This document shows positions 11,214 through 64,000 of a stretch of DNA of 64,000 nt, in pieces (position 1 is the stretch's first letter; every line of letters starts with the position of its first letter). Source of the DNA: an uncultured Bacilli bacterium (GTDB taxonomy: Bacteria; Bacillota_I; Bacilli_A; RF39; UBA660); the NCBI GenBank assembly GCA_934096175.1, contig CAKOLG010000001.1, forward strand, positions 117,736 to 181,735. Direction: 5' to 3'. Both the position numbers and the translations under genes were made by a program. The notes beneath the pieces were generated by a model. The model did not search any database, was not told the DNA's origin, and saw only the letters and a list, made by a program, of their open reading frames with translations.

Positions 11214-11226
11214 AACAATTCACCTC

Positions 11227-13140: not shown

Positions 13141-13141
13141 A

Positions 13142-40808: not shown

Positions 40809-40888
40809 TGAAAAACAAGTAAAAAGCAAACTATTAAATTGATATTTAAAAAGTTATTTGCTAAAATATACACTGTGGAGGAATGGAT

Positions 40889-47445: not shown

Positions 47446-47709
47446 ATGAAGTTTTCAAGTGAAAATAGTAAAATCCCTGATTGGATATTGCATCATTTAA
47501 GAAAATATGGCAATTGTTGTTGTGGCAGAGATATAGTCAAGAAAATCGGTAGAGAAAAAATTATAGAAGTTTTGAAACAAGAAGGGTATCCATGTATTCT
47601 TAAAATAATATATGAAAATAAATATAGATATAAGCGAAGAGTAAAATACCCATTAGATGCTTATTATATTTTGGAGATAGAATGTTTGGTAAAAAGTTAT
47701 TATATATGA
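47446..47709 (+). CDS. hypothetical small Cys-rich protein upstream of and overlapping mazF-like gene (possible non-canonical antitoxin)
   Basis: 87 aa. Its 3' end overlaps the toxin start by 4 nt. It contains CCCGRD and is neither a RHH nor an AbrB fold by eye. Confidence 0.35.
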   Translation: MKFSSENSKIPDWILHHLRKYGNCCCGRDIVKKIGREKIIEVLKQEGYPCILKIIYENKYRYKRRVKYPLDAYYILEIECLVKSYYI

Positions 47710-48029
47710 AAAACTTTAAAAAAGGAGATATATTTTTAGCTGAATTAAATGATTCCTACAATCATGTTCAAAACGGAATAAGACCTTGTTTAATTGTTCA
47801 AAACAATCAGGGTAATACTTTTTCGCCAACACTAATTGTTGTACCGTTAACAACAAAAATTAAAAAGACTAATATGCCTGTACATGTTGTGATAACTCCA
47901 TATCAAATGGTTTTGTGTGAATGTATTTTAACTATTTCAAAGAAGCAAATAATTTCTTACATTAAAACATTGGATGAAAAAACTATGAAAAAAGTAGATG
48001 AAGCTTTATCCGTATCATTAGAGATTTAA
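47706..48029 (+). CDS. mazF: MazF/PemK/EndoA-family endoribonuclease toxin
   Basis: KGDIFLAELNDS...GIRPCLIVQNNQGNTFSPTLIVVPLTT...MPVHVVI...MKKVDEALSVSLEI matches B. subtilis EndoA (RPVLVIQNDIGNRFSPTAIV...LPTHVEI...MDKVDEALQISLAL). Confidence 0.75.
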   Translation: MKNFKKGDIFLAELNDSYNHVQNGIRPCLIVQNNQGNTFSPTLIVVPLTTKIKKTNMPVHVVITPYQMVLCECILTISKKQIISYIKTLDEKTMKKVDEALSVSLEI

Positions 48030-49339: not shown

Positions 49340-49401
49340 ATAGAATTAAATATTGTGGTAATTCATTACCACAAGGACATAGAAGTTTGGAGGAGCAAAT
49401 T

Positions 49402-50427
49402 ATGAAGCGTAGCTTAAAGATAGTAATACCTATTATAATACTAATTATATTTTTAGTAGGATTATTTATTGTATATAAAAATACATATAAAATAGAATTA
49501 AAAAAAGAAGAATTTATTTATGAATTAGGAGAAAAAATTAGTTCTGATGTATCTAATTATTTAAAAGATGCTGATGCTAATAAAAATATAAAAGATTATA
49601 AACTATCTTCAGAATCATTAAAGAAGGATAATGATTTATTTATCATGGATGAATTAGAGTTAGTTCCAGTAGGTGAGTATATAATAACTATTGATTACAA
49701 AAAGAAGAGTGTTGATTTTGTAATTAAAGTAAAAGATACTATTGCACCAGAATTTTCTTCATTTAAAGATACCATAGAAATTGAAGAAACAGAAGATAAA
49801 CTGGATTTAACTACTTATTTTAAAGCAGAAGACTTAACAAAAGTAAAACTTCTAATAGAAGGAGAATATGATCTTAAAAAAGTTGGAGAATATAAATTAA
49901 AAGTTGTAGCTGAAGATGAAAACGATAATATAACTTCAAAAGATTTTATATTAAAAATAAAAAAGAAAATAGAAGAGCGACCAAAAGCACCTGAAAAGAA
50001 ACAAACTACAAATAATTCAAAATCGCCAACACCCCCATCAAATAAACCATCTAACAATATATCTAATAACAATACTTCTGGTTCTCCTAAATATCGTAGA
50101 GATATTTCTAATTCCTTTGCCAACCAGATAAATATATATAGGGAAGAAAATGGTTTATCTGAGTTGCCAATTACTTCTGAAGCTCAATCAGAAGCTGATA
50201 GAAGGTCTAAAGAAATATCAATTAACTATTCTCATGATGGAGCAGGATATGGATTTGGTGAGAATATTGGTTATGGTGGAATAGGATCAGATTTTATTGC
50301 TGCATGGAAAAACAGTCCATCTCATAATGCAACAATGCTTAGAGAACAGAATGTTGCAATGGCAGTAAGTGTATATGAAGCAAACGGAATGTGGTATGCT
50401 GTAACTTCTTTTAGGATGAATTATTAA
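49402..50427 (+). CDS. membrane-anchored CAP (SCP/PR-1-like) domain protein with Ig-like region and Pro/Ser/Asn linker
   Basis: N-terminal TM. The C-terminus YSHDGAGYGFGENIGYGG...AAWKNSPSHNATML...WYAVTSF matches CAP/YkwD motifs. Confidence 0.6.
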   Translation: MKRSLKIVIPIIILIIFLVGLFIVYKNTYKIELKKEEFIYELGEKISSDVSNYLKDADANKNIKDYKLSSESLKKDNDLFIMDELELVPVGEYIITIDYKKKSVDFVIKVKDTIAPEFSSFKDTIEIEETEDKLDLTTYFKAEDLTKVKLLIEGEYDLKKVGEYKLKVVAEDENDNITSKDFILKIKKKIEERPKAPEKKQTTNNSKSPTPPSNKPSNNISNNNTSGSPKYRRDISNSFANQINIYREENGLSELPITSEAQSEADRRSKEISINYSHDGAGYGFGENIGYGGIGSDFIAAWKNSPSHNATMLREQNVAMAVSVYEANGMWYAVTSFRMNY

Positions 50428-50556
50428 CAAATTTATTTATTATTTAATTTTAATAGTAATCTAATAATTCATCAAAAGAATAGTATCTATCTTTTAATAT
50501 TTCTAACATTTTATTTGATTATTTAATTGGAAGAGTATACATTAGGACAATAAAAT

Positions 50557-50586
50557 AACACGATTAACTAACACCGTGTTTTTTTA
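50557..50586 (+). terminator. rho-independent terminator after CAP-domain gene
   Basis: AACACGattaactaacacCGTGTT stem followed by a T7 run, between convergent genes. Confidence 0.5.
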
Positions 50587-50600
50587 TAAGTTAAATATTA

Positions 50601-51671
50601 TTAATTTGTATATAATTTACTTAATATTTTTGTATTTTTAATTTTATAGATCAGGTACAAAGTAATAAATAATATTAATATACATATTGCAATAGATATA
50701 AAATAACTATAGTATATAAAGAAAATTAGATTAACTCCCCATATTAAATTAGCCAATTTAAATAAAATGATAGTTACTATATTATCTATTATAAAAATGG
50801 TATAAGTAAGATAAGTAACAGCTAAAAATACATTCCAAATTATTGACAGATTTGTATAACCAGATAATTTTAGTATAATTATTATTAATATTTTATCATT
50901 AATTAAATCATTTATAAATATGAATAAATTGATTATGAAAAGAAAAATAATTATAAAAATAAATGGTGTTATTATAGATAACAGGCTATTATATTCCTTT
51001 AACTCAGTTTGATAACTATTATCAAAAAGAGTAGCATTGATATTATGGCTTTTAAATATATTTATTAAATCATCAACTTGTTTTTGTTCGCTTACTTTTA
51101 TTAGAAATTCATTTTCACTATTTTGAATGGTTCTAATTATATTATCTGAAATATAAATTTTATTTTGAAGATTAGAATCTCTCTCTTTATAAAAGCCAAC
51201 AATTTTACAAGTTATTTTCTTTTCTTCTATTGATAGAACAATATTAGAATTTAAAATTTCTTTACTTAAATTTTTATATAAAGATTCAGGTATAATAATT
51301 TCATTATTCTTGTTATTAAATTCTTTTCCATTTTGTATACTGATTTCCTCAGTTGGCAAAATCGGAGTGAGCATTATACTTCCTAATTTTTCGTTATATA
51401 TGTTAATGCTTCCTATATAATAGTAAACTTTTTTTATGCCCTTATTTTTTAATATCTCATAAAATTGATCTTCATTTTCTTTGGTACTAAATGATGTATA
51501 AACTATTCTATTTTCAACTCGATTTTGGAGTTTAGGAATCAAATTCTTTGATATTTGAGCATAGGATTGAATAATTACTATTATAGATAAGAACAAACCT
51601 GATAATATAATATATGAAATAATTTGTCTTTTACTTAATTTTATGAATTCTTTTAATAATAGTGAATTCAT
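50601..51671 (-). CDS. ABC transporter permease, FtsX-like
   Basis: N-terminal TM, an extracytoplasmic domain and three C-terminal TM helices. Downstream of the ATPase in the same operon. Confidence 0.6.
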   Translation of the reverse strand: MNSLLLKEFIKLSKRQIISYIILSGLFLSIIVIIQSYAQISKNLIPKLQNRVENRIVYTSFSTKENEDQFYEILKNKGIKKVYYYIGSINIYNEKLGSIMLTPILPTEEISIQNGKEFNNKNNEIIIPESLYKNLSKEILNSNIVLSIEEKKITCKIVGFYKERDSNLQNKIYISDNIIRTIQNSENEFLIKVSEQKQVDDLINIFKSHNINATLFDNSYQTELKEYNSLLSIITPFIFIIIFLFIINLFIFINDLINDKILIIIILKLSGYTNLSIIWNVFLAVTYLTYTIFIIDNIVTIILFKLANLIWGVNLIFFIYYSYFISIAICILILFITLYLIYKIKNTKILSKLYTN

Positions 51672-52889
51672 TTAATTTTTTAGTTCTTCCATAATATTAT
51701 TTTTTTTAAGCTTATTATTAAATATCAGTGATAACAAGACATTTATGATAATGCAGAATGAAATTCCTAGTATTATATTTAATTTTGAAATTGTTAATTT
51801 TAATCCATATAGCATTTCTTCGTTATTCAAATAACAGTTTTGAAAAACAAAAATTAAGAAGAGAGTTATAATTAGTGTTAGAAACAAAGTTACTAATATA
51901 CATAAAAATGATTCAAGGAATTGTAATTTTATAATATCTACTCGATTATACCCAAGTGTTTTTAATATTGCGTATTTTTTATTTCGCTTATATTGATTTT
52001 TTATTGATATTAAGATGATAACTATGATTGAAATAATCCCCACTAGTAAACCTATCGTTGTAATTAAATTCAAAATTTTATTCCCGATTGTGGTATCAAT
52101 TTTTACAACGGGATCTCCATTTGTATAAAAATGATTTTTTTCAAACCTTTTTAAAGTTTCATGAATATCATCTGTGCTTTTAAGTCTAACTACTAGAGGA
52201 TAAATTATTCCTTCTTCTTCTTTAAATGCTTCTGGCTGATAATACAAATTTAAATTTGTTACAATATCTGAATTTGTATAACAAAAATTTTCTTTTCCTT
52301 GTCTCATAGAGGAATCATAAGTTCCAATTAATCTAAAATTTTCTGTTTTAGTATCATCATCAATAAATTTTAAAGAAAATTGCTTTCCTAAAAGATTATT
52401 TAAATTTATTTCTTTTTTTTCTATTTTGTTTTCTTTTTTATATTCATAGAATATATTTTCAGGACATACCATAACTTTATCACTGGAATTATAATTATCA
52501 ATATTTTCCCCATTAGATATTGATATAGTATCTTTTGGTACTCCAAAAAGAAATAAATTGATTTCAGTATCATGATTAAGTCCCTCAAACATTCTCATAT
52601 TTATTATGTAGGAAGTATAAGGAGATATAGATTCAATCGTATTGTATGATTGCAATTCTGCTAATGCTTCTTTTTCTGTTTTCTCATCAGGATCATAATA
52701 TACAAAAAATGTACGATAATCCACCATCTTTTTAACGCTTTGATTCCAATAGTTATTTAAACTGTTGGAAAAAACTAAGCAAAATATTGTGATTGAAACA
52801 GCTATAGAAATAAAAATAATATTAAAATAATTTGCTTTATTTTTGTAAAATTCTTTAATCTCTATTTTTAACATATCAATTAATTTCAT
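51672..52889 (-). CDS. ABC transporter permease, FtsX-like
   Basis: Same architecture as the previous permease. Its stop is adjacent to the next gene's start (ATGA overlap with the ATPase). Confidence 0.6.
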   Translation of the reverse strand: MKLIDMLKIEIKEFYKNKANYFNIIFISIAVSITIFCLVFSNSLNNYWNQSVKKMVDYRTFFVYYDPDEKTEKEALAELQSYNTIESISPYTSYIINMRMFEGLNHDTEINLFLFGVPKDTISISNGENIDNYNSSDKVMVCPENIFYEYKKENKIEKKEINLNNLLGKQFSLKFIDDDTKTENFRLIGTYDSSMRQGKENFCYTNSDIVTNLNLYYQPEAFKEEEGIIYPLVVRLKSTDDIHETLKRFEKNHFYTNGDPVVKIDTTIGNKILNLITTIGLLVGIISIIVIILISIKNQYKRNKKYAILKTLGYNRVDIIKLQFLESFLCILVTLFLTLIITLFLIFVFQNCYLNNEEMLYGLKLTISKLNIILGISFCIIINVLLSLIFNNKLKKNNIMEELKN

Positions 52890-53556
52890 CTATAATCTCC
52901 GTCCTTCCATTTTTTAGGTAAATAATTTCATCAGCATAATCTTTAATGATGTCATCATGACAAATAACGATCACACATTTATCTTGATTTGAGAGTTTTT
53001 TTAATATACTTAAAATTTTAATTGTGTTTTCTTTATCTAAAGAAGCTGTGGGCTCGTCAGCTAATATAATCTCTGGATTATTGCATAGTGCACGAGCAAT
53101 TGCAACTCTTTGTTGTTCTCCACCCGAAAGTTGATTTGGGTAATGCTTATTCCTGTTTTCTATTCCTAATGAATTCAATAAGTTATTGACTCTTTCAACT
53201 TTTTCTTTTTTTGTTAAATTTCTATTAGTATAAAGTGGTAAAATTACATTTTCTGTGACATTCATTGTTGGAATCAAATTAAAAGATTGAAATATATATG
53301 CTAATTTCGTTTTTCTAAGATTAGCTATATTTTTTTCTGATAATTTTGATGTATTATGTCCGTCTATTTTTAATGTTCCGCTTGTTGGTTCTATAAGAAG
53401 CCCAATTATTTGCATTAATGTAGATTTTCCACTTCCAGATTCACCCATAATTCCATACAATTTTCCTTCTTCAAACTTAATATTAATATCATCTAAAGCG
53501 TTTATGCATTTATTTTTAAATGAATATTTTTTTTGTACATTAATTAACTCTATCAC
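52876..53556 (-). CDS. ABC transporter ATP-binding protein (MacB/LolD/antimicrobial-peptide exporter type)
   Basis: Walker A GESGSGKST, signature LSGGEQQRVAIARAL and Walker B ILADEPT. Confidence 0.85.
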   Translation of the reverse strand: MIELINVQKKYSFKNKCINALDDINIKFEEGKLYGIMGESGSGKSTLMQIIGLLIEPTSGTLKIDGHNTSKLSEKNIANLRKTKLAYIFQSFNLIPTMNVTENVILPLYTNRNLTKKEKVERVNNLLNSLGIENRNKHYPNQLSGGEQQRVAIARALCNNPEIILADEPTASLDKENTIKILSILKKLSNQDKCVIVICHDDIIKDYADEIIYLKNGRTEIIDEIN

Positions 53557-53578
53557 TATTTACCTTCTTTCTTTTTAC

Positions 53579-53992
53579 TTAGTTTTGAGTCATAATTACA
53601 CTATTTGATTTAATTCCACAAAATTGTCTTCCACCTGTATAATTTGTAGAGAAACCATATGCATATCGTCCATTTTTAAATTTTCCCATATTAGCTCTAA
53701 CGCATCGGTATAATTCTGTACTCATCATTTTACCAGATACTTGAGTGGTTGGACTGTAGTGTAATGTAACCCATAAAAGTTTTTCTCTATTAGATGTGCA
53801 ATCTGTATGAGCGTCCATAGAAATATCTATGATAAAATTTTTTGTGTCAAACCATCTATAGGAACCGATATGATTTGAATTAGCTGGCATATTTAATGTT
53901 GATTTATATTCAGCAGCAGAAACTTTTGTTGCCCCAAAAAGAGATAAAACAGCTATTCCAAAAACAAATAACGGCATTAATAATTTTTTCAT
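53579..53992 (-). CDS. secreted ~110-aa protein with 4 Cys, first gene of ABC exporter operon (bacteriocin-like candidate)
   Basis: Sec signal peptide MKKLLMPLFVFGIAVLSLFGATKVSA/AE. The mature domain is Cys-containing and beta-rich. The operon structure matches lactococcin-972-type loci. Confidence 0.45.
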   Translation of the reverse strand: MKKLLMPLFVFGIAVLSLFGATKVSAAEYKSTLNMPANSNHIGSYRWFDTKNFIIDISMDAHTDCTSNREKLLWVTLHYSPTTQVSGKMMSTELYRCVRANMGKFKNGRYAYGFSTNYTGGRQFCGIKSNSVIMTQN

Positions 53993-54129
53993 TCTTTCAC
54001 CTCCTACTATATTATATTTATCATTATGAAAAAAAAGTAATGTAAAAGCACGAATAAATGATAATTTTTATGATATAATAAAATAGATAAATTTATTTAC
54101 TTAAATTATATGTGGAAGGTGACAATTTA

Positions 54130-54690
54130 ATGGTAAAAAAATATATATTAATTGTTTTTTTGTTTTTAATTTTATTTTTATCTGGGTGTAGTAAAAAAGA
54201 AACGGGCTATTCTTATCATCCTACATATATAGACTCTAATAATGGCCAGCGTTGGTTGAACTATGCAATTTTGTATGAAAATACTTATACGGGGGTTAAA
54301 GATGGCTCATTAAGCATTTTAAAACAAGGAGAACAAACTGAGGAATATCAATTGTTTTTTTCAATAGATTCATTGTATTATAAAAAAGGAGATATTATAT
54401 TGGGGACTTCAAATTATATATACATCTTTAATCAAGATCAAGAAAAAAATTTTAGAATTATAGGATTTAAATTATCTTCTGAAAAAGAAACACCTGTAAT
54501 AATAGATAATAAAAAAATAAAATCTATTGTTAATGTCCATGGTGCTAACAAAGAAAATATATATGTAAGTTATTTTGATGATAAGAATGAAAGATATCTT
54601 AAAATAAGTGCAGATTTAAGTAAAATATATGAATTAGATAGTTTAGAAAGTGTAGAAGAACAAATGGAATATACTATTTTAAAAAAATAA
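54130..54690 (+). CDS. lipoprotein (hypothetical)
   Basis: Lipobox LFLSGCSKKE. ATG 54130 after GGAAGGTGA. Confidence 0.55.
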   Translation: MVKKYILIVFLFLILFLSGCSKKETGYSYHPTYIDSNNGQRWLNYAILYENTYTGVKDGSLSILKQGEQTEEYQLFFSIDSLYYKKGDIILGTSNYIYIFNQDQEKNFRIIGFKLSSEKETPVIIDNKKIKSIVNVHGANKENIYVSYFDDKNERYLKISADLSKIYELDSLESVEEQMEYTILKK

Positions 54691-54746
54691 TCAAAAATAG
54701 TTAAATATTTATGCTATAATGTATTTGTATAATATAGTGAGGAAAG

Positions 54747-54774
54747 GGTGATTAATAACAGGTGATTAATAACA
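54747..54774 (+). repeat. perfect tandem duplication 2 x GGTGATTAATAACA
   Basis: The 14-bp unit is repeated head-to-tail in the 5' leader of the downstream secreted-protein gene, just after a TGTATAAT extended -10. Confidence 0.6.
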
Positions 54775-54830
54775 ATAGTTTATTTTAATTTATTTATGTA
54801 TTCGGATGTAGAAATGGAGGAATGTTAATT

Positions 54831-55307
54831 ATGAAAAAAGTAGTATTTATAATTTTGTGTATGGCAGTTTTTATGCCGTTTGCAGTTGAAGCTAAGACTT
54901 GTGAGTATGGGATGCCATCACCACCAATATACTATAATGGAAATTGGGCTTATGGACAAGTAATAAATTTTAAGACGTCAGCATCATCATGTCTAGCTGA
55001 TAATATGTATGTTTATTTTAGTAATGGTAATTATTTATCCACTTTTAATTTTACCATAGAGGCTTATTTAATGGAAAAAGATAAAGATCCTAATCCAGAT
55101 GATAAAGCTAAACTATATTTTGGTTACAATTCAGGTTATAGTTTAATGAACTGGACTTTACAACAAAAATTTGATGGTAATTTAGATAGTGCTGGAGATC
55201 AAACTTGTGAGTTGTATATGAAATTTAGATTAAAAGAGCCGTTAGCACATAATAATTTTGAATACCTTGACAGCGATATGTTTAGATATACAATATGCAT
55301 GGATTAA
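54831..55307 (+). CDS. secreted Cys-containing protein, paralog A of a novel family
   Basis: Signal peptide MKKVVFIILCMAVFMPFAVEA. It shares KTCEYG / TSASSC / VYFSNG / YLME / GDQTCELYM blocks with the ORF at 63514. Confidence 0.6.
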   Translation: MKKVVFIILCMAVFMPFAVEAKTCEYGMPSPPIYYNGNWAYGQVINFKTSASSCLADNMYVYFSNGNYLSTFNFTIEAYLMEKDKDPNPDDKAKLYFGYNSGYSLMNWTLQQKFDGNLDSAGDQTCELYMKFRLKEPLAHNNFEYLDSDMFRYTICMD

Positions 55308-55789
55308 AAAAAACTCGAAAAATTTGGATACTATTATCAATTTTATTTTTGATAATAGTATCATCATTAATTGTTTTATTCAAAAAACCAATAAATAAAA
55401 TGGAAAGTAATAACTTGGATACAAATGAAAAATTTAATAAAAAGGAACAAAAAATAGTAGATGCAGCTTATAAAAAAATTGATAGTTCAGATTATTTTGA
55501 CCATTCTAATTTAAAAAAAATTGAACTAGAGAGCTTGCAATTATATGGATATTATAAATCTCAAAGCAATATTCTTTATATAAGGGTTAATTATAATTCA
55601 GAATGTAAAGATGGTACTTATAGTTGTGATAATCTTGCTAAAGATAAATCTTATAGCTTATCAAATAATATTCCATTTTATTTTTTTATTAAAGTAGATA
55701 CAAATAATTATAATCATTTAGAGATAGTTGATGGAATATCAGCCAATATAAATTCTGATTGGATATCAGATTCTAGTAAAATAGAGTAA
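55295..55789 (+). CDS. membrane-anchored hypothetical protein
   Basis: N-terminal TM (IWILLSILFLIIVSSLIVL). It overlaps the preceding gene's end. Confidence 0.45.
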   Translation: MHGLKKTRKIWILLSILFLIIVSSLIVLFKKPINKMESNNLDTNEKFNKKEQKIVDAAYKKIDSSDYFDHSNLKKIELESLQLYGYYKSQSNILYIRVNYNSECKDGTYSCDNLAKDKSYSLSNNIPFYFFIKVDTNNYNHLEIVDGISANINSDWISDSSKIE

Positions 55790-55892
55790 TATCATCAAAT
55801 AAAGCAGCAATAGAAAATAATATATTTCAAAAATTAAATTAAAAAAATATATTGACTAATATTTGATTAAATGTTAATATTATTATGACAAA

Positions 55893-55965
55893 TGAATACG
55901 GTGTATTTTCGGTGTTAATTATATATAGACCTTGGTTGGTTTTTTATAGTTAACACTTTTTTATT
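55893..55965 (+). repeat. conserved inverted-repeat/terminator-like element, copy 1 (TACGGTGTATTTTCGGTGTTAATTA...AGTTAACAC-TTTTTT)
   Basis: The arms GGTGTTAAT / (A)GTTAACAC, with conserved upstream TACGGTnnATTT and a downstream T-run, recur at 57866-57927. Confidence 0.55.
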
Positions 55966-56169
55966 ACCTAATATTTATTTTATATGTCCGGACTATAAAT
56001 AAAATATGGTATTTATATCTATTGTGTTCAATTGTCAATCATTTTATTTGATATTATGATTGAAACGGACTTGAATACGGTATTTTAAATCTTTCTATAT
56101 ATTAGATAAAAAATTTAATATTTAAGCAATTTTTTAATATTCTAACAAAAGCAGCAACAGGAGATCCAT

Positions 56170-56385
56170 ATGTATACAATGTACGAACCTACAGGGAATA
56201 TAATAGGTTATATTCAACCTCATGATTTCTATGTTAGATATCTGGTTAGTAGCCCTAGTATGGATAATGTTCATAGAGTTGTGTTTAATGATGGTAAAGA
56301 TGTTAAAATAGGTTATATAAGAGAACAGTATGTTTTACCTAGTATGACTTTAAATCCTACTGATGATGAAGCAGTAAAAGCATAA
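56170..56385 (+). CDS. hypothetical small protein
   Basis: 71-aa ORF downstream of element copy 1. No signal peptide. Confidence 0.35.
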   Translation: MYTMYEPTGNIIGYIQPHDFYVRYLVSSPSMDNVHRVVFNDGKDVKIGYIREQYVLPSMTLNPTDDEAVKA

Positions 56386-56388
56386 ATA

Positions 56389-56724
56389 TTGGTAGGTTAT
56401 GAACCATTCACTTGTGTAGAATATGATCAAGCTTCTGATGAATATATACTGCATAAATGGAAAGATACACCATCAAGAGAAATCTATATTAATAAACTAG
56501 TCCCTTATTTTAATGCCCAATGGTCTTATGTAGGGATGCTTAATAAAGGTGATTATATAAAAATAAATAGAGGTAATTTTATTAATCCAGGGTACACAAG
56601 ACCATGGACAAATCGTATAGATGGAATTAAGAAAAAAGGTAGTATTTCATTTACTAGTTTTTCTGGTTATGCAATTATTGGAATTGAGTACGCTAGTCAA
56701 GGATATGAAAGAGCTTGGTATTAG
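56389..56724 (+). CDS. hypothetical protein
   Basis: 111-aa ORF, 3 nt after the previous gene. Aromatic-rich, with no signal peptide. Confidence 0.4.
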   Translation: MVGYEPFTCVEYDQASDEYILHKWKDTPSREIYINKLVPYFNAQWSYVGMLNKGDYIKINRGNFINPGYTRPWTNRIDGIKKKGSISFTSFSGYAIIGIEYASQGYERAWY

Positions 56725-56785
56725 AAAACTATCATTAGATATTATCAAGTATAATATAATATGATATAATAGTTTTGGTGATTAA

Positions 56786-57007
56786 GCTGAAAATATAATT
56801 ATACTTTTACTTTTGATATTATGTGTATGTGGATGTGAAAATAACAATCAATATACAGATTTTAAACATTATGATTTAAGGAATTATGATATTACTAATA
56901 AATATTCCTATGTAGATGATGATTATATATATTATAATGGAAGTACTAGTATTTCTAGTTCAATTGAAGTTGTCAAATGTTCTAGAAATAGTTATAAATG
57001 TCAATAA
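56786..57007 (+). pseudogene. small lipoprotein-like ORF lacking an AUG/GUG start (remnant or non-canonical ATA/ATT/TTG initiation)
   Basis: The in-frame sequence AENIIILLLLILCVCGCENNNQ looks like a signal peptide plus lipobox, but no Met lies between the upstream stop (56783-56785) and the lipobox. A GGTGA RBS sits 13 nt upstream of ATA 56795. Confidence 0.25.
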
Positions 57008-57090
57008 TAAAATACCAAACTAAAACTATTATCATGATTAATAAAGAAAATGCTTGATATGCATTTTCTTTATTTTATTTATAGGCGAGG

Positions 57091-57849
57091 ATGGTGATTA
57101 AAATTAAACTTGTAACTAAAATATTTAAAAGAAATGATTGGTATGTAACTTCACCTTTTGGAAGTAGAAATCCAATTAAAACTAAAAAAGGTATAACCAC
57201 CAGCTTTCATAATGGATGCGATTATGGAACTAATGGAGAAAAGTGGGGACAATATGCTTTAGAAAATGGCAAAATTTTATCTTGTGGAATCGCTTCTGAT
57301 GGAGCTAAATATATATGGGTAAATTATCCAAGAATCAATAAAAAAATTTTGCACTACCATTTAGATAGTATTTGTGTAAAAACGGGGCAAGAAGTTCATG
57401 AGGGATTATTACTTGGCTATACAGGTTCAACTGGTATGGCTACAGGAATTCATTTACATTTAGGAATGAAAAATAGTAATGGTGGAGACTATGAAGATCC
57501 ACATAATTATGATTACCAGTTAAATAACATTAATCATTCTGAGACATCTAAAATGGATTTAATAAAAATTGCTTATGAAGTAATTGCAGGGAAATATGGT
57601 AATGGAAAGACTAGAATTGATAAACTTACTAATATGGGATATAATGCAAGTGATGTTCAAAAGATAGTAAATGAAATAAAAAATAAAGAGCTAAAACGGA
57701 CAAATTTTTACATAGTAAAAAAAGATGATACTCTAATAAAAATAGCTAAAAAATTTGGAACAACATGGGAAAAATTATATGAATTAAATAGAGACATTAT
57801 AGGTAATGATCCTGATTTAATTAAAATAGGTCAAATATTGAAATACTAG
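57091..57849 (+). CDS. M23 (LytM) peptidase with C-terminal LysM domain, no signal peptide (endolysin-like)
   Basis: HNGCDYG...GYTGSTGMATGIHLHLGM (HxxxD/HxH zinc site) and LysM YIVKKDDTLIKIAKKFGTTWEKLYELN. The N-terminus is not a signal peptide. Confidence 0.7.
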   Translation: MVIKIKLVTKIFKRNDWYVTSPFGSRNPIKTKKGITTSFHNGCDYGTNGEKWGQYALENGKILSCGIASDGAKYIWVNYPRINKKILHYHLDSICVKTGQEVHEGLLLGYTGSTGMATGIHLHLGMKNSNGGDYEDPHNYDYQLNNINHSETSKMDLIKIAYEVIAGKYGNGKTRIDKLTNMGYNASDVQKIVNEIKNKELKRTNFYIVKKDDTLIKIAKKFGTTWEKLYELNRDIIGNDPDLIKIGQILKY

Positions 57850-57865
57850 TAAAAAAAATTTATAA

Positions 57866-57927
57866 TTACGGTAATTTATTCGGTGTTAATTAGTATATAA
57901 TTTTTTATATTGATTAACACCTTTTTT
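57866..57927 (+). repeat. conserved inverted-repeat/terminator-like element, copy 2 (TACGGTAATTTATTCGGTGTTAATTAGTATATA...TTGATTAACACC-TTTTTT)
   Basis: The 9-bp arms GGTGTTAAT / ATTAACACC with a T6 tail. It sits 55 bp upstream of the holin gene. Confidence 0.55.
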
Positions 57928-57982
57928 ATATTTGTTAAAGAGTAGATGTTTTAAGTCAATTTTATAAAGAGAGGGGAAGAAA

Positions 57983-58417
57983 ATGAAACAAGTTCTTGAT
58001 AAAATAATTAGTTTTTTGTTATATTTTTTGCTTTTTCTATTTGGAAGTTTTGATTTTATGTTAAAAACTTTATTGTCTTTAATGTTTATAGATTATATAA
58101 CAGGTGTAAGTAGAGCATTTATTACAAAAAAGGTTAATAGCAGTATAGGAGGTAAAGGAATTATAAAAAAAGCAGTATACTTATGTGTTGTTGCAGTAGC
58201 AGTAATATTAGACAATTTATTGGAAGTAAACGGAGGTTTAAGAGCTTTAATTATATATTCATTTATTTTTAACGAAATGTTATCAATTTTAGAAAATAGT
58301 AGTGCTATGGGAATCAAAGTTCCTAATATTTTATATAAATCACTTGAAAAATTAAATAAAGATCAAAATGAAAATGATAAAGAAATAGTAAAAAGTGAAG
58401 AATCAAAGCATAAATAA
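57983..58417 (+). CDS. TcdE/UviB-family holin (toxin-secretion/phage-lysis holin, Phage_holin_4_1-like)
   Basis: Three TM helices, MFIDYITGV and the central TKKVNSSIGGKGIIKKAVY. Compare C. difficile TcdE SRKFNSSFGIDGGIRKVAM. Charged C-terminal tail. Confidence 0.7.
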   Translation: MKQVLDKIISFLLYFLLFLFGSFDFMLKTLLSLMFIDYITGVSRAFITKKVNSSIGGKGIIKKAVYLCVVAVAVILDNLLEVNGGLRALIIYSFIFNEMLSILENSSAMGIKVPNILYKSLEKLNKDQNENDKEIVKSEESKHK

Positions 58418-58833
58418 TGTTGCTAATACTTTAGCAGTGTATAAAAAAGTCGAATTTTATTGTATAATATCTATGATAGCAAGGCAAAAATGCCAAGTAT
58501 TTATATTAAGAAATGTGATGGTGAAATAATAATAAAAAGAAACTAGTTAAGTAGTAAGAAGTAAAAAGTAGTATAATACACTTTCTATTCTTACTGTAGA
58601 TACTAGTTTATATATGCAAAAAAATTGTGTAGTATTTATTTTTTGCTTTATATGAATTGCTTTTATGGAGCGATTATTATGGAACTAGAAAAGTATTATA
58701 CATATTTTTTAGTAAGAAAAGATAGTATATTAAATCATAAAAAGACTATATTCTTTGCTCTAAAGGCTAATAAGAAATATAGTCTTTTTCAATTTATAAA
58801 AATACTTTTTCTTAGGGCAAGAAGTCCTCCCGT

Positions 58834-58869
58834 TCCTATCAATTTAATAAAAAATTTAAATTGATAGGA
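58834..58869 (+). promoter_or_regulatory. RBS-occluding hairpin TCCTATCAATTTAA-taaaaaa-TTAAATTGATAGGA upstream of sigma-like regulator gene
   Basis: Perfect 14-bp inverted repeat. The 3' arm includes GATAGGAGG, part of the SD sequence for the ATG at 58880. Confidence 0.5.
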
Positions 58870-58879
58870 GGAAGAAATT

Positions 58880-59356
58880 ATGGGTAAGTTCCCAAAAAGA
58901 AGAAAAAGTAAGGATAATCCGTATACACTTGGATTTGATGAAATAAAAAAGACTTATACTATTTCATTTAAAGATGTGAATAACATTATTCAAGTGATTG
59001 AAATAAATGAATTGTTATATAAAGAGTTCAATAAGTTTGAATTAGAAGATTTATCTGAAATGAATGAATATGATAATCATATTGAGCACTCAGAACTTTA
59101 TGAAGAAACTTTATATAAAAGATCTTTTAATAAAGATATATCAATAGAAGACAATATTGAAACTAAATTAATGGTAGAACTATTAAACATTTTTATAGAA
59201 GAATTACCAACTATACAAAAAAATAGATTAAAAAAGTATTATATAGAACACAAAACATATGAAAAAATAGCAATAGAAGAAGGATGCACAAAAAGAGCAG
59301 TAAAATTTAGTATAGATATTGCAATTCAAAAATTATCAAAAAAATTTAAAAATTAG
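58880..59356 (+). CDS. sigma-70 region-4-like HTH regulator (possible TcdR/UviA- or RinA-like activator)
   Basis: C-terminal LPTIQKNRLKKYYIEHKTYEKIAIEEGCTKRAVKFSIDIAIQKL resembles ECF/sigma region 4. A basic N-terminus. 158 aa. Confidence 0.5.
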   Translation: MGKFPKRRKSKDNPYTLGFDEIKKTYTISFKDVNNIIQVIEINELLYKEFNKFELEDLSEMNEYDNHIEHSELYEETLYKRSFNKDISIEDNIETKLMVELLNIFIEELPTIQKNRLKKYYIEHKTYEKIAIEEGCTKRAVKFSIDIAIQKLSKKFKN

Positions 59357-59477
59357 ACTACACAAAACATATTTAAGTTAGGAAACAAGTGAAAGGGATA
59401 TAATACTCTTTCACTTGCTATCCAAAAATTTTATAAGCTAATTTTAAAAGATTTAGTGTTTAATAGTCAAAATCATA

Positions 59478-59663
59478 ATGAAAAAATTTACAGTAGAAAT
59501 AAATCAACTAAAATCACTTTCTTTTGAAGTAAATGCAAAAAACAAAAAAAGTGCAAGACAAATGATTACCGATTTTATCAATAAAGTAGATTTAAACAAT
59601 TTGAATTTAAATTGCTTAAAAAAAGAAAATGTTAAAGTGGTTGTAAATAGGTTAAGAAAATAA
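59478..59663 (+). CDS. hypothetical small basic protein
   Basis: 61-aa ORF with a GGA-less weak RBS. Low confidence. Confidence 0.3.
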   Translation: MKKFTVEINQLKSLSFEVNAKNKKSARQMITDFINKVDLNNLNLNCLKKENVKVVVNRLRK

Positions 59664-59681
59664 AAGAACGGAGATGAAAAA

Positions 59682-60017
59682 ATGGCATATGTAAAAAGAG
59701 TACCACCAATTAAGTTAATTCTTACAAAGAAAGAATATAACACTCTTATAGGTATTTTAACAAAAAATGTGGATGAAAATAATGATGCAACAGCTAGAGA
59801 ATTATCAATTAATACTAAAGAAAAATTATTAAAATATAGTATACCACATGAATTAAATGAGAACGATGTAGAGATTGATGTAAGATTATATTTAAATGAG
59901 GCAGCAGATATTATAACTGAGTTATTATTATATAATGTAAAAAGAATTAACGAGATAAATTATTATGAAGTTTTGATAAAAGTTAGAGAATCATTTGTAA
60001 ATCATACTGACGATTAA
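59682..60017 (+). CDS. hypothetical protein
   Basis: 111-aa ORF after GGAGATGAAAAAATGG-type RBS (AACGGAGATG). Confidence 0.4.
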   Translation: MAYVKRVPPIKLILTKKEYNTLIGILTKNVDENNDATARELSINTKEKLLKYSIPHELNENDVEIDVRLYLNEAADIITELLLYNVKRINEINYYEVLIKVRESFVNHTDD

Positions 60018-60116
60018 ATTAGTATTAAATCTTTTAAAAATGTAATTAAAAATTTGGAAAGCTTAGATGTACTAAAAATTTGCATTAAAAATTTAATATT
60101 TAAGGAGATGAAAAAA

Positions 60117-62540
60117 ATGGCAAATAATGAAGTAGTAGGAGATCCATATGTATTTTATACACAAAAATGGTTAAATGATACTTATGGAAATGACAGTAGA
60201 TTTAATACTGTTACAGAAAATGGTAAAACAGGATGGGCTACCATTTATGCTTTAACAAGAGCATTACAAATTGAATTAGGAATTCAATCAACAGCTGATA
60301 ATTTTGGAAATGGAACACAAAAAGCATTTAAAACTCAATATCCTAATGGTGTACAGCAACAATCATCAGATGATAAAACAAAGAAGAACATTTATGGAAT
60401 CATCCAAGGAGCACTATTATGCAAAGGATATGCAATAGGTGCTAACACACCTACCTGTAATTTTTACGGAGGAACAGGTGGCGCAATAAAGAAATTAAAA
60501 GCAGATGCAGGATTAACAGATACAAGTTCGACAGTAACATTGAATATAATGAAAGCATTATTATCAATGGATTATTTTTATTCTTATGATACATCAACAA
60601 GAACTCAAAATATTATTAGTATGCAAAGATATCTAAATAGAAATTATGAAGCATATATTGGAATTAGACCTTGTGATGGAGTATATTCTCGTAGAACAAG
60701 TCAAGCATTGATATATGCAATTCAGGCAGAAGAGTGTATGCCTACTTCAGTAGCTAATGGTAACTGTGGACCATCTACAAAGCGTTGTCTACCAACATTA
60801 TCAGTAACTGGATCATCATCAGGAACTAGTTATAAGGGACAAGCATATTCAACTGCTAGTTTAAATAAATTTAAAACTTTAGCAAATATAGCATTATATT
60901 TTAATGGATTTGGTTCAGGAGAATTAACATCTAATTTAGACGAAAATACTATAACAAGTTTTCAAACTAAGTACTCTATTTTAGCGACTGGGAAAATAGA
61001 TTATACAACATGGTTATCTCTATTAATTAGCTGTGGAGATACAGATAGAAGTGCTAGTGCATGTGATTGTGCTACTATTTTAACACCAGCAAAAGCAAAA
61101 ACTTTGTATGATAATGGTTATCTTCGAGTTGGAAGATACTTATCTGGATATATTGCAAGTGGAGCAAGTAAAGCATTAACAAAAAAAGAATTGCAAATTG
61201 CTGCTGACGCAGGATTATATATTTTCCCAATTCATCAATCAAGTGCTAACAAGGTTTCATATTTTACAACTGCAAATGCAGTAAAAGATGTAGACAGTGC
61301 TTTTGAACATGCAAATGCACTAGGTATGCCTAGTGATACTAGTATTTATTTTGCAGTCGATTGTGATCCTTTAGATACAGAAATAACCTCTAATATTATT
61401 CCATATTTTACAACAATAAATAATATAATGAAAAGTAAGTATAATAATAAATACCCTGTTAGTATATATGGAACAAGAAATGTTTGTACGAGAGTTAGTA
61501 ATAAAGGCTTAGCAAAATACAGTTTTGTTAGTGATATGTCAACAGGATTTAGTGGAAATTTAGGATTTCCTATTCCAGATAATTGGGCATTTGACCAATT
61601 TGCAACCGTTACTGTTGGATCTGGAGATGGTAAGATTGAAATTGATAAAGATGCAATGTCTGGTAGGGATCTTGGATTAATAGGTGATTTATATTTAAAG
61701 GATTATGGGAAGGTATATTATAATTTAGTTGATATGTATAATTTAGCATTAGATTATACTAATAACAATGAAGAAAAAAGTAATTTATTAGTTTTACAAT
61801 ATCTCAGAAAGGGACGCTATGGTGATACATCTATTTTTTGTGGTGATTCATTATCGGGAGATGCCTCAATTATTAAGTGGGAAATTGTAGCTGGTACTAT
61901 AGACAAAGGATATTGTAATTTAGTAGACAGCAAATTATATAATTTGAATTTTGATTTTGTGGATTCATCTGTAAATCCTACTACATCACATGATTTACCA
62001 CACTTGGCAGCTACTCTAAATTCGTTGCTATACCAAATTGGAAATGATGATTTAAGAGGTTTCGATGAATTAGTTGATTGTTACTCTGGATGGGCAGGAG
62101 ATACAATTTCGTATGCAGATTCAATTCAAAAAGCCGTGAAAGATGGATTAACTACTGATTATGTTAAATGGGCGAAAGATAATATTTGTACCCCAAACGA
62201 AGCACATTTTAACCTTCAAGATTATATTGATGATATTGATGCATATAATTTATACCATATGATTAAATTTAAAGGGTATACTCTGCCAGAAGCGTTTTAC
62301 TTTTATTATGTTTTATCATCATTAGAAACTCATAAATATGAGTATGAGAAAAGAGCAAGCAGATTTTTAAATTATATGTCAACATCTCATTTCATTGATC
62401 TTTGTGAGTTAATAAATTCTGATGAAACTCCTATAAAACAGTTAAAGAGAACATTAAGTAAAGCTGAACAAAAATATATTGATGCAGCAATAGATGCATT
62501 TAAATCATTTATATTCAAGGAATATGTAGAAGGAAGATAA
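60117..62540 (+). CDS. large modular cell-wall hydrolase-like protein: 3x peptidoglycan-binding (PG_binding_1-like) repeats + DUF1906/GH25-like TIM-barrel + ~290-aa uncharacterised C-terminal domain, no signal peptide
   Basis: PG-binding repeats (GWATIYALTRALQIELGI; IIQGALLCKGYAIG; SMQRYLNRNYEAYIGIRPCDGVYSRRTSQALIYAIQ). DUF1906-like block LRVGRYLSGY...ELQIAADAGLYIFPIHQ...IYFAVDCDP...VSIYGTRNVC. ATG 60117 sits 9 nt after AGGAG. The N-terminus MANNEVVGDPY is not a signal peptide. Confidence 0.65.
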   Translation: MANNEVVGDPYVFYTQKWLNDTYGNDSRFNTVTENGKTGWATIYALTRALQIELGIQSTADNFGNGTQKAFKTQYPNGVQQQSSDDKTKKNIYGIIQGALLCKGYAIGANTPTCNFYGGTGGAIKKLKADAGLTDTSSTVTLNIMKALLSMDYFYSYDTSTRTQNIISMQRYLNRNYEAYIGIRPCDGVYSRRTSQALIYAIQAEECMPTSVANGNCGPSTKRCLPTLSVTGSSSGTSYKGQAYSTASLNKFKTLANIALYFNGFGSGELTSNLDENTITSFQTKYSILATGKIDYTTWLSLLISCGDTDRSASACDCATILTPAKAKTLYDNGYLRVGRYLSGYIASGASKALTKKELQIAADAGLYIFPIHQSSANKVSYFTTANAVKDVDSAFEHANALGMPSDTSIYFAVDCDPLDTEITSNIIPYFTTINNIMKSKYNNKYPVSIYGTRNVCTRVSNKGLAKYSFVSDMSTGFSGNLGFPIPDNWAFDQFATVTVGSGDGKIEIDKDAMSGRDLGLIGDLYLKDYGKVYYNLVDMYNLALDYTNNNEEKSNLLVLQYLRKGRYGDTSIFCGDSLSGDASIIKWEIVAGTIDKGYCNLVDSKLYNLNFDFVDSSVNPTTSHDLPHLAATLNSLLYQIGNDDLRGFDELVDCYSGWAGDTISYADSIQKAVKDGLTTDYVKWAKDNICTPNEAHFNLQDYIDDIDAYNLYHMIKFKGYTLPEAFYFYYVLSSLETHKYEYEKRASRFLNYMSTSHFIDLCELINSDETPIKQLKRTLSKAEQKYIDAAIDAFKSFIFKEYVEGR

Positions 62541-62618
62541 AATATAACTAAGGATAGTTAATTGATTAAATTAATCAATTAACTATTTTTTATGGTATAA
62601 TATTAGTGGTGAGCAATT

Positions 62619-63293
62619 ATGTTAAACTTTTCAAAAAAATATATTGCTGTTATTATATTGAGTATAATTATTTTTCTTACATTATATTTTTGTTGGATAT
62701 TTTTGTTAAAAAAAGAATACAACTATAAAAGTGGGGAAATTAGAATTTATCAATATAATGATAAAATAAAAGTATCTGATTTAGATTCTCTCTTTTTGGA
62801 TTCTTTAAATGTAAATAATAATTATTTGTCTTTTTATGATGATGCGATTATTCAAATAAATAAAAATGACCTTCGTAAGCGTGCCATTGGAGAAGTATCA
62901 GTATTTGCTAAATATGATTCTATAGAAAATTTAGTTCTATTTTTAAAGGAAAATGGAGTAGAAATTCAATCTAATCTAATATTAGAAAATCGAAGAATAA
63001 TTATATATAGCAATGGAAAAACAGTGTGTATTTTATTTTTTGAATCTGATAATAAAGTTAGATTAAATTTTAGGACAGAATTACCATATAAAATATCCAA
63101 TATGTACACAAGTGATGATGAATTTGAAAATTATTTTTTAAAAATAAATGCAAAAACTCACTTATCAATAAAAGAACAATTAAAATATAATTTTATAAAG
63201 ATAGCCATTGTAATAGTTTGCTTTAATTTAATTTGTTTGGTATTTCTTACATTAAAAGAATTAATAATAATAAAAAAGTGTAAAAAAAAGTAA
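62619..63293 (+). CDS. two-TM membrane protein (candidate immunity/accessory protein)
   Basis: TM helices near both termini (IAVIILSIIIFLTLYFCWIFLL; IAIVIVCFNLICLVFLTL). Immediately downstream of the large hydrolase. Confidence 0.4.
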   Translation: MLNFSKKYIAVIILSIIIFLTLYFCWIFLLKKEYNYKSGEIRIYQYNDKIKVSDLDSLFLDSLNVNNNYLSFYDDAIIQINKNDLRKRAIGEVSVFAKYDSIENLVLFLKENGVEIQSNLILENRRIIIYSNGKTVCILFFESDNKVRLNFRTELPYKISNMYTSDDEFENYFLKINAKTHLSIKEQLKYNFIKIAIVIVCFNLICLVFLTLKELIIIKKCKKK

Positions 63294-63513
63294 TAATTTG
63301 TCTATTTGCTATTTTCTTTTATCAGAATATATGATATTATGATGATGAGAAATATAGTGATGAATATGCAGTATCTTTCATCGTTGCAGCGAGTTATTGT
63401 TGTGATTGGAAGCTACTGCTTTTTTATATAATAATATTGTTGCATCTGAAGATTATTAAAGACTATTAATTGCTTATAGCATTGATAGAATATATTAAGA
63501 AGGAGGTGATGAT

Positions 63514-64000
63514 ATGAGAAAAAAGATTATAATGTTTGGTGTTTTTCTAGTTGGACTATTTTTTGCAGGAAATTTTAATGTTTATGCAAGAGAGTGCGAA
63601 TGGGGATTACAAGCTCCTCAAATACCACAAGGTTATGCAGAGAATAGAGGTCATATTGTAAGCTTAAAAACAACAGCAAGTGCCTGTAAAGGAGTCAATA
63701 CTGCCGTTTATTTTTCCAACTTTGGAAGTTTACCAAATTGGTATACACCAAGTTCTGGAACAATTGTACATGGGTATTTGATGGAAGATGATCCTCCAGC
63801 ATATGAACCAGATGAAAGAGTTAAATATTACATTGGTTTTTTTACTGGAAGGGTATTAACAGATTTTCAGCTTAATAAAACAATTACTCCTGGAAATATT
63901 GATAGTGAAGGAGATCAAACTTGTGAATTATATATGAATTTCTCAATTTCTGGAACGACAGGTGGTACTCCTATTCCACAGGGATTATTCTATTATGGAA
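63514..64000 (+). CDS. secreted Cys-containing protein, paralog B (runs off window end)
   Basis: Signal peptide MRKKIIMFGVFLVGLFFAGNFNVYA. Shares RECEWG / TTASAC / VYFSNFG / YLMEDD / GDQTCELYM blocks with 54831-55307. Confidence 0.6.
   Translation, partial: MRKKIIMFGVFLVGLFFAGNFNVYARECEWGLQAPQIPQGYAENRGHIVSLKTTASACKGVNTAVYFSNFGSLPNWYTPSSGTIVHGYLMEDDPPAYEPDERVKYYIGFFTGRVLTDFQLNKTITPGNIDSEGDQTCELYMNFSISGTTGGTPIPQGLFYYG

Follow-up and report, generated by a model that had tools for sequence, protein, structure and literature searches.

Bac41 of Enterococcus faecalis, carried by plasmid pYI14, is encoded by bacL1 (lysin), bacL2 (regulator), bacA (accessory effector) and bacI (immunity). It is a two-component bacteriolysin, in which BacL1 lyses only together with BacA, and the downstream BacI provides an immunity that is specific for the BacA subtype (PMC7476776, PMC11808071, PMC13532309, PMC8532689). 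Type I and type II BacA-BacI specificities have been reported (PMC11808071, PMC8532689). Here, we analysed 64,000 nucleotides (nt) from an uncultured Bacilli bacterium (GenBank assembly GCA_934096175.1, contig CAKOLG010000001.1, positions 117,736 to 181,735; hereafter the window), in which two related, predicted exported proteins are encoded on either side of a lysin and holin block. We named their family FAM, and the two copies FAM-A and FAM-B. The main advance is their context: the window carries a Bac41-like island of shuffling cassettes, in which FAM and a partner gene form an obligatory pair.

Several features of the island resembled Bac41. It had a BacA homologue, a homologous holin, a lysin without signal peptide, a small regulator and a small membrane protein encoded after the BacA-like gene. 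The BacA homologue, BacA-like B (60117..62540; all features are on the plus strand unless stated otherwise), is an 807 amino acid (aa) protein without signal peptide, and consists of PG_binding_1 repeats, an Rv2525c/GH25-like part and a YkzU-type C-terminal domain (Pfam matches PF08924, 8.6e-46, and PF01471). It matched the 726-aa protein found at the BacA position in E. faecalis at 43.5% over 526 aa (BLASTP, E 1e-115). The holin (57983..58417) was of the TcdE type, as first proposed (Phage_holin_4_1; TIGR01593 holin_tox_secr, 106.6 bits against a cut-off of 40.2), and the holin encoded in the Bac41-like locus of E. faecalis was homologous to it (31% identity, E 2e-8). On the E. faecalis plasmid NZ_CP141077, the gene order was peptidoglycan amidohydrolase, BacL2, holin, secreted 175-aa protein, 726-aa homologue and membrane protein, which is the Bac41 layout. 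Given this layout and the BacA and holin homology, the module between the two FAM copies is a bacteriocin locus of the Bac41-like kind, in which lysin and regulator differ from those of Bac41. The original prediction had recognized it as a holin/hydrolase module, and both the lysin and the holin are present; its Bac41-like nature and the partner gene that always accompanies FAM had been missed.

The membrane protein c64 (62619..63293) occupies the BacI, or immunity, position 3' of BacA-like B. It is homologous to the c6_191 family, which follows other YkzU-type BacA-like genes (hhalign, 97.3%). As in Bac41, the C-terminal region of the BacA-like proteins of uncultured Bacilli was polymorphic and switched with the downstream gene. 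Across loci, ~520 shared N-terminal residues were followed by either of two unrelated C-terminal types; genes of the YkzU type preceded a member of the c6_191/c64 family, and those of the other type preceded a member of a lipoprotein family. The type of FAM was independent of the BacA-like C-terminal type.

Other features set the island apart from Bac41. The window lysin (57091..57849), which lacks a signal peptide, combines Peptidase_M23, CW_7 and LysM domains and had no similarity to the enterococcal BacL1-like endopeptidase with SH3 repeats. The BacL2 model NF041508 scored 264.8 bits on the enterococcal protein and did not match the sigma-like protein of the window, a 158-aa sigma-70-like protein (58880..59356) in which only region 4 was detectable, with sub-threshold sigma-70/ECF matches. 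The proteins at the BacI position had no detectable homology to the enterococcal downstream protein. Finally, neither FAM nor its partner had a counterpart in the enterococcal locus or among 72,556 plasmids. The enterococcal locus (L033 in our collection; NZ_CP141077, 13249-26736) also has, between bacL2 and bacA, genes for a TcdE-family holin and for a secreted 175-aa protein without annotation, neither of which belongs to the four genes by which Bac41 is usually described. The 175-aa protein was considered as an analogue of FAM and rejected (hhalign probability 1.2%).

The TcdR/TcdE pathogenicity locus (PaLoc) and the UviA/UviB-BCN5 loci of clostridia also have a TcdE-family holin and a small sigma-like regulator beside a large protein without signal peptide, and a holin-dependent release of such cargo has been discussed (PMC9527704). 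We rejected BCN5 as a relative of BacA-like B: BCN5 is an M14 peptidase with SH3b (PMC9527704, PMC4459074) and is not homologous to it, and the true relative is BacA of Bac41. The clostridial loci also differ from the window in having no FAM-like gene. A 9.2-kb plasmid of C. baratii had a BacA-like gene together with a sigma factor and a BhlA/UviB holin. A literature search returned nothing relevant that joined DUF1906 with bacteriocin or Rv2525c with holin, nor anything relevant on YkzU.

FAM-A (54831..55307) is a 158-aa precursor with a predicted signal peptide of about residues 1-21, which leaves a mature protein of ~137 aa, with 16 kDa and a pI of 4.6. FAM-B (63514..64000), the second family member, is cut by the window end after 162 of ~166 codons. 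Its full-length homologues P0150 (91%) and P0151 (79%) have 166 aa and end in ...YYGICMN; therefore FAM-B is short by only ~4 codons, the fourth Cys among them. The sequence GGAGG lies 9 nt 5' of the FAM-A ATG, and an alternative listed start at 54822 is too near this ribosome-binding site; AGGAGG precedes the FAM-B start. FAM-A and FAM-B were identical at 51 of 143 positions (36%, BLASTP E 1e-26), compared with the ~30% estimated before, and all five sequence blocks previously quoted as shared were found in both. They are real, old paralogues, as had been proposed, and they fall into old, separate clades. No third copy was found with the family hidden Markov model (HMM) among window open reading frames (ORFs) of >=45 aa.

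Signal peptides were judged by eye from sequence features, and this agreed with the Sec signals originally predicted. Both N-termini have a K/R-rich start and a hydrophobic core, followed by VEA/K in FAM-A and VYA/R in FAM-B (slash, cleavage site), with (K/R)xC after VxA. The Ala at position -1 of the cleavage site was kept in 78% of 147 FAM members. Lipobox, LPXTG motif and wall-binding domain were absent from FAM proteins. They are thus probably exported via Sec, and the window encodes SecA (40883-43387).

To place the two copies in context, 40 loci were gathered by exact-protein look-ups and pattern scans, their ORFs were called, and the proteins were clustered. A FAM homologue was present in 37 loci; the other three were plasmid loci (L029, L033, L034). 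In all 25 of the non-redundant FAM genes that could be assessed, the next gene on the same strand was a member of one of two families, TM164 or P281. A BacA-like gene was found in 21 of the 22 FAM loci of >=9 kb, the exception (L013) having only 0.5 kb of upstream sequence. This linkage persisted down to 27-29% FAM identity and through several arrangements: FAM, TM164, BacA-like, small membrane protein; BacA-like, membrane protein, FAM, P281; FAM, P281, BacA-like; and convergent orientations. Holins were present in only ~10 of the 22 loci, with the TcdE type in eight and Phage_holin_6_1 in two. Thus, the suspected link to the lytic module does recur in related genomes, but what is conserved is the BacA-like gene and not the holin.

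The partner of FAM-A, TM164 (55295..55789), is anchored in the membrane by its N-terminus, and the part predicted to be exported is an alpha/beta domain with two Cys. The two genes share 13 nt at the TM164 start and the FAM-A stop, where ATGCATGGATTAA reads ICMD* in the frame of FAM-A and MHGLK in that of TM164, and the MHGL start recurs among TM164 homologues. Members of this family have ~160-170 aa and an ectodomain with two invariant Cys, and some have a lipobox-like N-terminus in place of the membrane helix. The AlphaFold2 (AF2) model of TM164 was of moderate confidence (predicted local distance difference test, pLDDT, 78.7), with a transmembrane helix at residues 5-28, followed by a helix and a beta-sheet; a Foldseek search with it returned nothing below E = 0.3. 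The second partner family, P281, has ~275-300 aa and N-termini that resemble cleavable signal peptides (VHA/Q, VKA/M). Homology between TM164 and P281 was rejected, because the hhalign probability was 22.6% and the alignment spanned only the N-terminal hydrophobic segment.

In a neighbour-joining tree, the FAM proteins partnered by TM164 formed one clade, which included FAM-A and was sister to some P281-partnered members. P281 was the partner in all other clades, including that of FAM-B. FAM-B was closest to its relatives in L015, with 92% nt identity over 63254-64000, and in L038, with 91% identity at the aa level. There, the FAM-B homologue is followed by P281, the Cys-rich membrane protein c7_262 and a SpaA-type surface protein, and the same three genes probably follow FAM-B beyond the window end. 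The c7_262 family, membrane-anchored and of ~260 aa, adjoined the FAM-P281 pair in nine loci (L015, L016, L018, L019, L021, L023, L027, L036, L038). Another family, c5_250, likewise unannotated and with secreted proteins of ~250 aa, was usually encoded directly 5' of FAM or of the BacA-like gene (L001, L008, L017, L020, L031).

FAM and its partner are an autonomous cassette: they diverge as a unit, independently of the BacA-like gene, and are gained and lost between near-identical strains. FAM identity followed partner identity (Spearman 0.57) and not the identity of the N-terminal 520 aa of the adjacent BacA-like protein (Spearman -0.08); both values come from 36 non-independent locus pairs and are descriptive only. 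In L015 and L027, for example, the BacA-like proteins were 86% identical and the FAM proteins 53%. Strain L030 was 99.69% identical to the window over 50000-63287 (13.3 kb) and kept BacA-like B and c64. Past the equivalent of position 63287, the SpaA gene followed directly and the FAM-B cassette was missing. Conversely, L023 and L038 had the FAM-B cassette and no BacA-like B, and L015 had one BacA-like gene and FAM-B only. In L006, L007 and L012 (~9500-14200), FAM, TM164, BacA-like and lipoprotein genes lay between rsmA and yabG, a housekeeping and sporulation neighbourhood, and a 39-aa fragment of yabG (Peptidase_U57) was found on the upstream side of the cassette. This duplicated fragment indicates that the four-gene cassette was inserted as a unit, with an apparent partial target duplication. 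The five genes c5_250, FAM, TM164, BacA-like and lipoprotein of L008 were separated by gaps of 20-65 bp and look co-transcribed. No island variant seen lacked a FAM pair, and none lacked an intact BacA-like gene. The earlier description of the copies as duplicated within the island is therefore misleading: they belong to old clades, have different downstream partners and lie in two cassettes whose gains and losses are independent of each other.

The window also shows decay within the island. FAM-A and TM164 were kept beside a remnant of a BacA-like gene, BacA-like A (56106..56724), which has its upstream motif and an altered start, has lost 1.66 kb internally in comparison with L010, and is interrupted by a nonsense codon at 56386. 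It is followed by the remnant of a lipoprotein gene (56813..57007) with a 295-bp internal deletion. In L010, FAM-A and TM164 are followed by an intact, 755-aa BacA-like A (11301-13568) and the lipoprotein gene, and in L030 both genes had decayed in the same way as in the window. The ratio of nonsynonymous to synonymous rates (dN/dS) of the BacA-like A remnant was 0.23-0.26; therefore the deletion is recent.

FAM had no relatives among named proteins. A word-indexed search found 22 relatives of FAM-A and 20 of FAM-B, all unnamed or 'hypothetical' and none with a Pfam domain. An exhaustive profile search over 1.84 billion representatives gave 130 FAM clusters at E <= 1e-3, 57 of them at <=1e-10, nearly all stand-alone proteins of 155-175 aa. 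As the original prediction had judged by eye, neither copy matched a known family in Pfam, NCBIfam, PHROGs or PDB sequences, and no match to a housekeeping family was found there. At E <= 0.1, Pfam returned nothing for either copy except a chance-level UCH_N match, and the Lcn972 family PF09683 was not matched. The hosts were uncultured Bacilli and 'Mollicutes' metagenome-assembled genomes (MAGs) from gut and rumen. Searches of 72,556 plasmids, of 50,697 phages and of IMG/VR found no homologue of FAM; therefore FAM is a lineage-specific add-on to the Bac41-like islands of these uncultured gut and rumen bacteria. BacA-like homologues were found by tblastn in 558 plasmids, among them 384 of Enterococcus and 70 of Lactiplantibacillus, and none of these plasmids had FAM. 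One Lactiplantibacillus homologue was annotated as 'BacA-like protein'. Many 5-10 kb plasmids of this genus had full-length BacA-like genes (99% query coverage, ~36% identity) and few other annotated genes, and these genes may be unrecognised bacteriolysin determinants of food lactobacilli.

Conserved residues defined an acidic signature across the family, LxExD...NxD[DE] and GDxxxELY. L80, E82 and D84 were present in 100% of members, accompanied by N88, D90 and D/E91, by K94 and Y96 (99%), by G116, G122 and D123 (95%), and by E127 (98%), L128 and Y129. The D84-x-D-x-N-x-D-D run resembles a Ca2+-binding loop and probably binds Ca2+. The proposal of conserved Cys positions, with two likely disulfides, held for part of the family. 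The four Cys were conserved in the subfamily of FAM-A and FAM-B, and the patterns among the 147 members (CCCC in 54, none in 79, C--C in 4, -CC- in 3) showed that the four-Cys signature is a near all-or-none subfamily trait, present in ~40% of the family. The partial patterns C--C and -CC- point to a pairing of C24 with C156 and of C54 with C126.

The AF2 model of FAM-A (pLDDT 87.9) was an eight-strand jelly-roll beta-sandwich, and the mature proteins of ~16 kDa have a pI of ~4.6-4.7. Foldseek found no close solved structural relative. Its weak matches were to TNF ligands, heads of collagen-like proteins, CBM11 and PirA. FAM, with ~137 mature aa, therefore resembles C1q/TNF-like proteins, carbohydrate-binding modules (CBM) and PirA of PirAB in its modelled architecture, but the TM-scores were only 0.25-0.5 and the identities 5-14%, so that these are generic jelly-rolls, insufficient for a family assignment.

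We tentatively propose that FAM is an autonomous secreted effector and that the next gene encodes its cognate protector. The FAM pair would then most likely be one more weapon-and-shield pair in a Bac41-type island. FAM would leave the cell via Sec and fold outside as an acidic ~16-kDa jelly-roll with a predicted Ca2+ loop, stapled in the window subfamily by two predicted disulfides. With TM164 in the FAM-A clade or P281 in the other clades, it forms a two-gene module that is predicted to be exported. In uncultured gut and rumen Bacilli, this module always co-resides with Bac41-like cassettes, made of a BacA-like gene and a membrane protein at the BacI position, often with holin, lysin and sigma-like regulator. 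Beside a BacA-like protein released by the holin, FAM would be released to the medium as an extra antagonistic, envelope-directed effector, and the protein encoded immediately after it would be its cognate binding partner. In type A cassettes, the membrane-tethered TM164 may capture or neutralise FAM at the surface of the producer and so confer immunity. An antagonistic or immunity activity of the pair is suggested by this context.

Four observations favour an effector. A soluble protein whose signal peptide has been cleaved is released from a single-membrane Bacilli cell, as follows from established cell topology, and such release fits an effector better than an immunity protein. By analogy with BacI, the task of immunity to the BacA-like protein already falls to the gene that follows it. 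FAM was more constrained than its partner: it was more conserved in 47 of 60 comparisons, and between the window and L010 its dN/dS was 0.14 (8 nonsynonymous and 12 synonymous substitutions) against 0.45 for TM164, in rate differences that rest on few substitutions. FAM-A thereby resembled the enzymes (M23 0.11, BacA-like 0.15), and TM164 resembled c64 at the BacI position (0.40). Lastly, FAM and its partner co-diverge and move together, as expected of an effector and its cognate binder.

Protein bacteriocins that depend on Sec and have an adjacent immunity gene are known, among them lactococcin 972 (PMC7476776), dysgalacticin and streptococcin SA-M57. FAM is like the lactococcin 972 type in carrying a predicted Sec signal, in its predicted stabilisation by disulfides and a beta-sandwich, in its position 5' of a gene for a membrane-associated protein, and in its location in a bacteriocin island. 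It differs in having no sequence match, in being larger than Lcn972, and in its partner, which is single-pass or secreted and not an ABC transporter.

Several points weigh against an effector with its own protector, besides the small number of substitutions and the non-independent pairs mentioned above. FAM has no recognisable toxin or enzyme fold among the structural matches (generic jelly-rolls, TM-score <=0.5), and it is acidic (pI ~4.6), unlike membrane-active bacteriocins. P281 may be secreted rather than tethered, which weakens the case for an anchored immunity protein in most family members. L007 combines an intact FAM with a frameshifted TM164 gene, a state that would be awkward for an essential antidote, although it may be an assembly error. 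The dN/dS of the BacA-like A remnant is low, so that the retention of FAM-A beside it proves little; an 'orphan immunity' argument built on the decayed BacA-like A beside an intact FAM-A was dropped, as the deletion is recent. Finally, an independent effector and immunity pair does not require strict co-residence with BacA-like genes.

This co-residence is explained by the main rival, in which FAM, held at the cell surface by its partner, neutralises the muramidase-like or peptidoglycan-binding part of the BacA-like protein, or the M23 lysin, and protects producer and kin. It accounts for the tight linkage to BacA-like genes regardless of their C-terminal type, for the apparent co-transcription with the BacA-like gene in L008, and for the finding that neither a FAM pair nor an intact BacA-like gene was missing from any island variant seen. 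FAM would also be extracytoplasmic, where a wall hydrolase acts. Exported immunity proteins and inhibitors of wall hydrolases are well known: Pim acts in the periplasm against pesticin, Tsi3 against Tse3 and Tgi against Tge, and lysozymes are inhibited by PliC/MliC, PliI, PliG and Ivy. Several of them are beta-sandwich proteins, like FAM, and FAM shares with them its small size, predicted export, beta-rich fold and linkage to a muramidase-like toxin gene. To our knowledge, the described examples are all periplasmic and from diderm bacteria. FAM matched none of these families by sequence in Pfam or NCBIfam, or by fold among the Foldseek PDB matches, and it did not co-diverge with the enzyme: its identity was uncorrelated with that of the conserved BacA-like region, as in L015 and L027. 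A monoderm cell would lose an inhibitor that is secreted in soluble form. L030 retains BacA-like B without FAM-B, and none of the 558 BacA-like plasmids had FAM, so BacA-type proteins do not generally need it. In Bac41, immunity is supplied by the downstream BacI (PMC13532309). Overall, we consider a FAM-based immunity complex unlikely.

FAM, joined by P281 where that is present, could instead be a third extracellular part of the bacteriolysin: a lectin-like subunit for targeting or activation, without which the BacA-like protein would not lyse live cells, much as BacL1 and BacA depend on each other. The downstream protein would then be a co-subunit and not an antidote. Bac41 indeed requires two secreted proteins together (PMC7476776, PMC11808071), and four FAM loci (L006, L008, L015, L017) had a BacA-like gene and no recognisable lysin. 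A jelly-roll with a conserved acidic, Ca-like site is found in many carbohydrate-binding modules, P281 may also be secreted, and the constant presence of a FAM pair with an intact BacA-like gene fits a joint action. On the other hand, both sequence and AF2 model indicate that TM164 is clearly membrane-tethered in the producer and thus unfit as a released co-subunit. The missing co-divergence of FAM with BacA-like proteins applies here too, and the BacA-like genes on Enterococcus and Lactiplantibacillus plasmids work without FAM. Co-regulation was not evident either, since a 21-nt motif found 5' of both window BacA-like genes (see below) was absent 5' of the FAM genes. We regard a third component as improbable.

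Equally hard to sustain is that FAM is a hitch-hiker without a part in antagonism, such as a secreted protein that binds walls or glycans and comes with its anchor, used for adhesion or envelope upkeep, in a recombination-prone island shared with bacteriocin and SpaA genes: type-B cassettes often adjoin 1,100-aa SpaA-domain surface proteins, the islands lie in or near integrative and conjugative element (ICE) and recombinase contexts, and FAM has no toxin signature, but SpaA stays in L030 without the FAM-B cassette and so flanks the module rather than being part of it, and the link to BacA-like genes, held at 27-29% FAM identity through varied insertion sites and gene orders, makes chance co-location an unlikely explanation.

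The effector with its cognate protector thus remains our preferred reading. A bolder form of it, which we hold to be possible though doubtful, is that FAM represents a new family of protein bacteriocins, or of obligatory co-effectors, with a jelly-roll fold and a Ca2+ loop. These would be Sec-exported and served by two unrelated families of cognate partners, and would make the Bac41-like bacteriolysins of gut Bacilli three-component systems. In cassettes without a lysin, such as L006, FAM and not a peptidase would then be the partner of BacA.

The leader of FAM-A was originally credited with a promoter and a repeat. Both are present, TGTATAAT at 54726-54733 and the perfect 2x14-bp tandem duplication of GGTGATTAATAACA at 54748..54775, but they carry no evidential weight. 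Sigma-70-like sites occurred at chance frequency in the region (89 found, 91.1 expected from shuffles). The duplication is a strain-level feature, common only to the 99.7%-identical strain L030, and L010, with a 96% identical FAM-A protein, has a single copy of the 14-bp repeat. Both were therefore rejected as regulatory elements. The segment 63288..63513 comprises the left junction and leader of the strain-variable FAM-B cassette, with identity to L030 ending at 63287. Approximately 190 bp of it directly 5' of FAM-B (63330-63513) were conserved in L023 (9160-9335), whose FAM protein is 79% identical. This conserved leader holds GATGAATATG(C/T)AGTATCTTTCATC with 6-bp inverted arms, a sequence that may be an operator.

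The 21-nt AT-rich motif ATAAAAAATTTAATATTTAAG was found at 56106-56126 and 60084-60104, only directly 5' of the two BacA-like genes; it was not found upstream of the FAM genes of the window. A related 27-mer occurred at 56092-56118 and 58833-58859, the second site being 5' of the sigma-like gene. The motif may represent a promoter class of the island's sigma-like factor; two matches were reached in 7 of 100 shuffles. No Rfam matches for structured RNAs were found in 50-64 kb.

Between the sigma-like gene and BacA-like B lie two small cytoplasmic ORFs of 61 and 111 aa (59478..60017), the latter conserved in L010, L022, L023, L038 and L039. The window also has a PemK/MazF toxin gene (47682-48029) and, directly before the island, a gene for a CAP-domain membrane protein (49387-50427). 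On the minus strand, a four-gene set (50601-53992) encodes a secreted, Cys-containing 137-aa protein that matched no family, along with one ABC ATPase and two permeases of the FtsX type. The set recurred beside the BacA-like and FAM genes in six loci (L005, L010, L015, L023, L027, L030). Its layout resembles that of a Sec-dependent bacteriocin with ABC-type immunity, as in lactococcin 972; no homology was found. The window is chromosomal and spans the replication origin, with dnaA, dnaN, gyrB and gyrA on the minus strand at 8.7-17.7 kb and a sign change of the GC skew at ~18 kb. The overall GC content was ~27% over positions 1-50000.

In enterococci, from which Bac41-type bacteriolysins have been described, these systems shape the competition between strains in hospitals, and what BacA contributes has yet to be explained. 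With the window, such a system is seen in uncultured low-GC Bacilli of gut and rumen, with interchangeable cassettes and an extra exported pair that is always near BacA-like genes. If the pair is a hitch-hiker, it adds one more family of hypothetical surface proteins. Otherwise, resolving its function could add a new family of protein bacteriocins or immunity proteins, and it could show what BacA-type proteins need to act on live cells.

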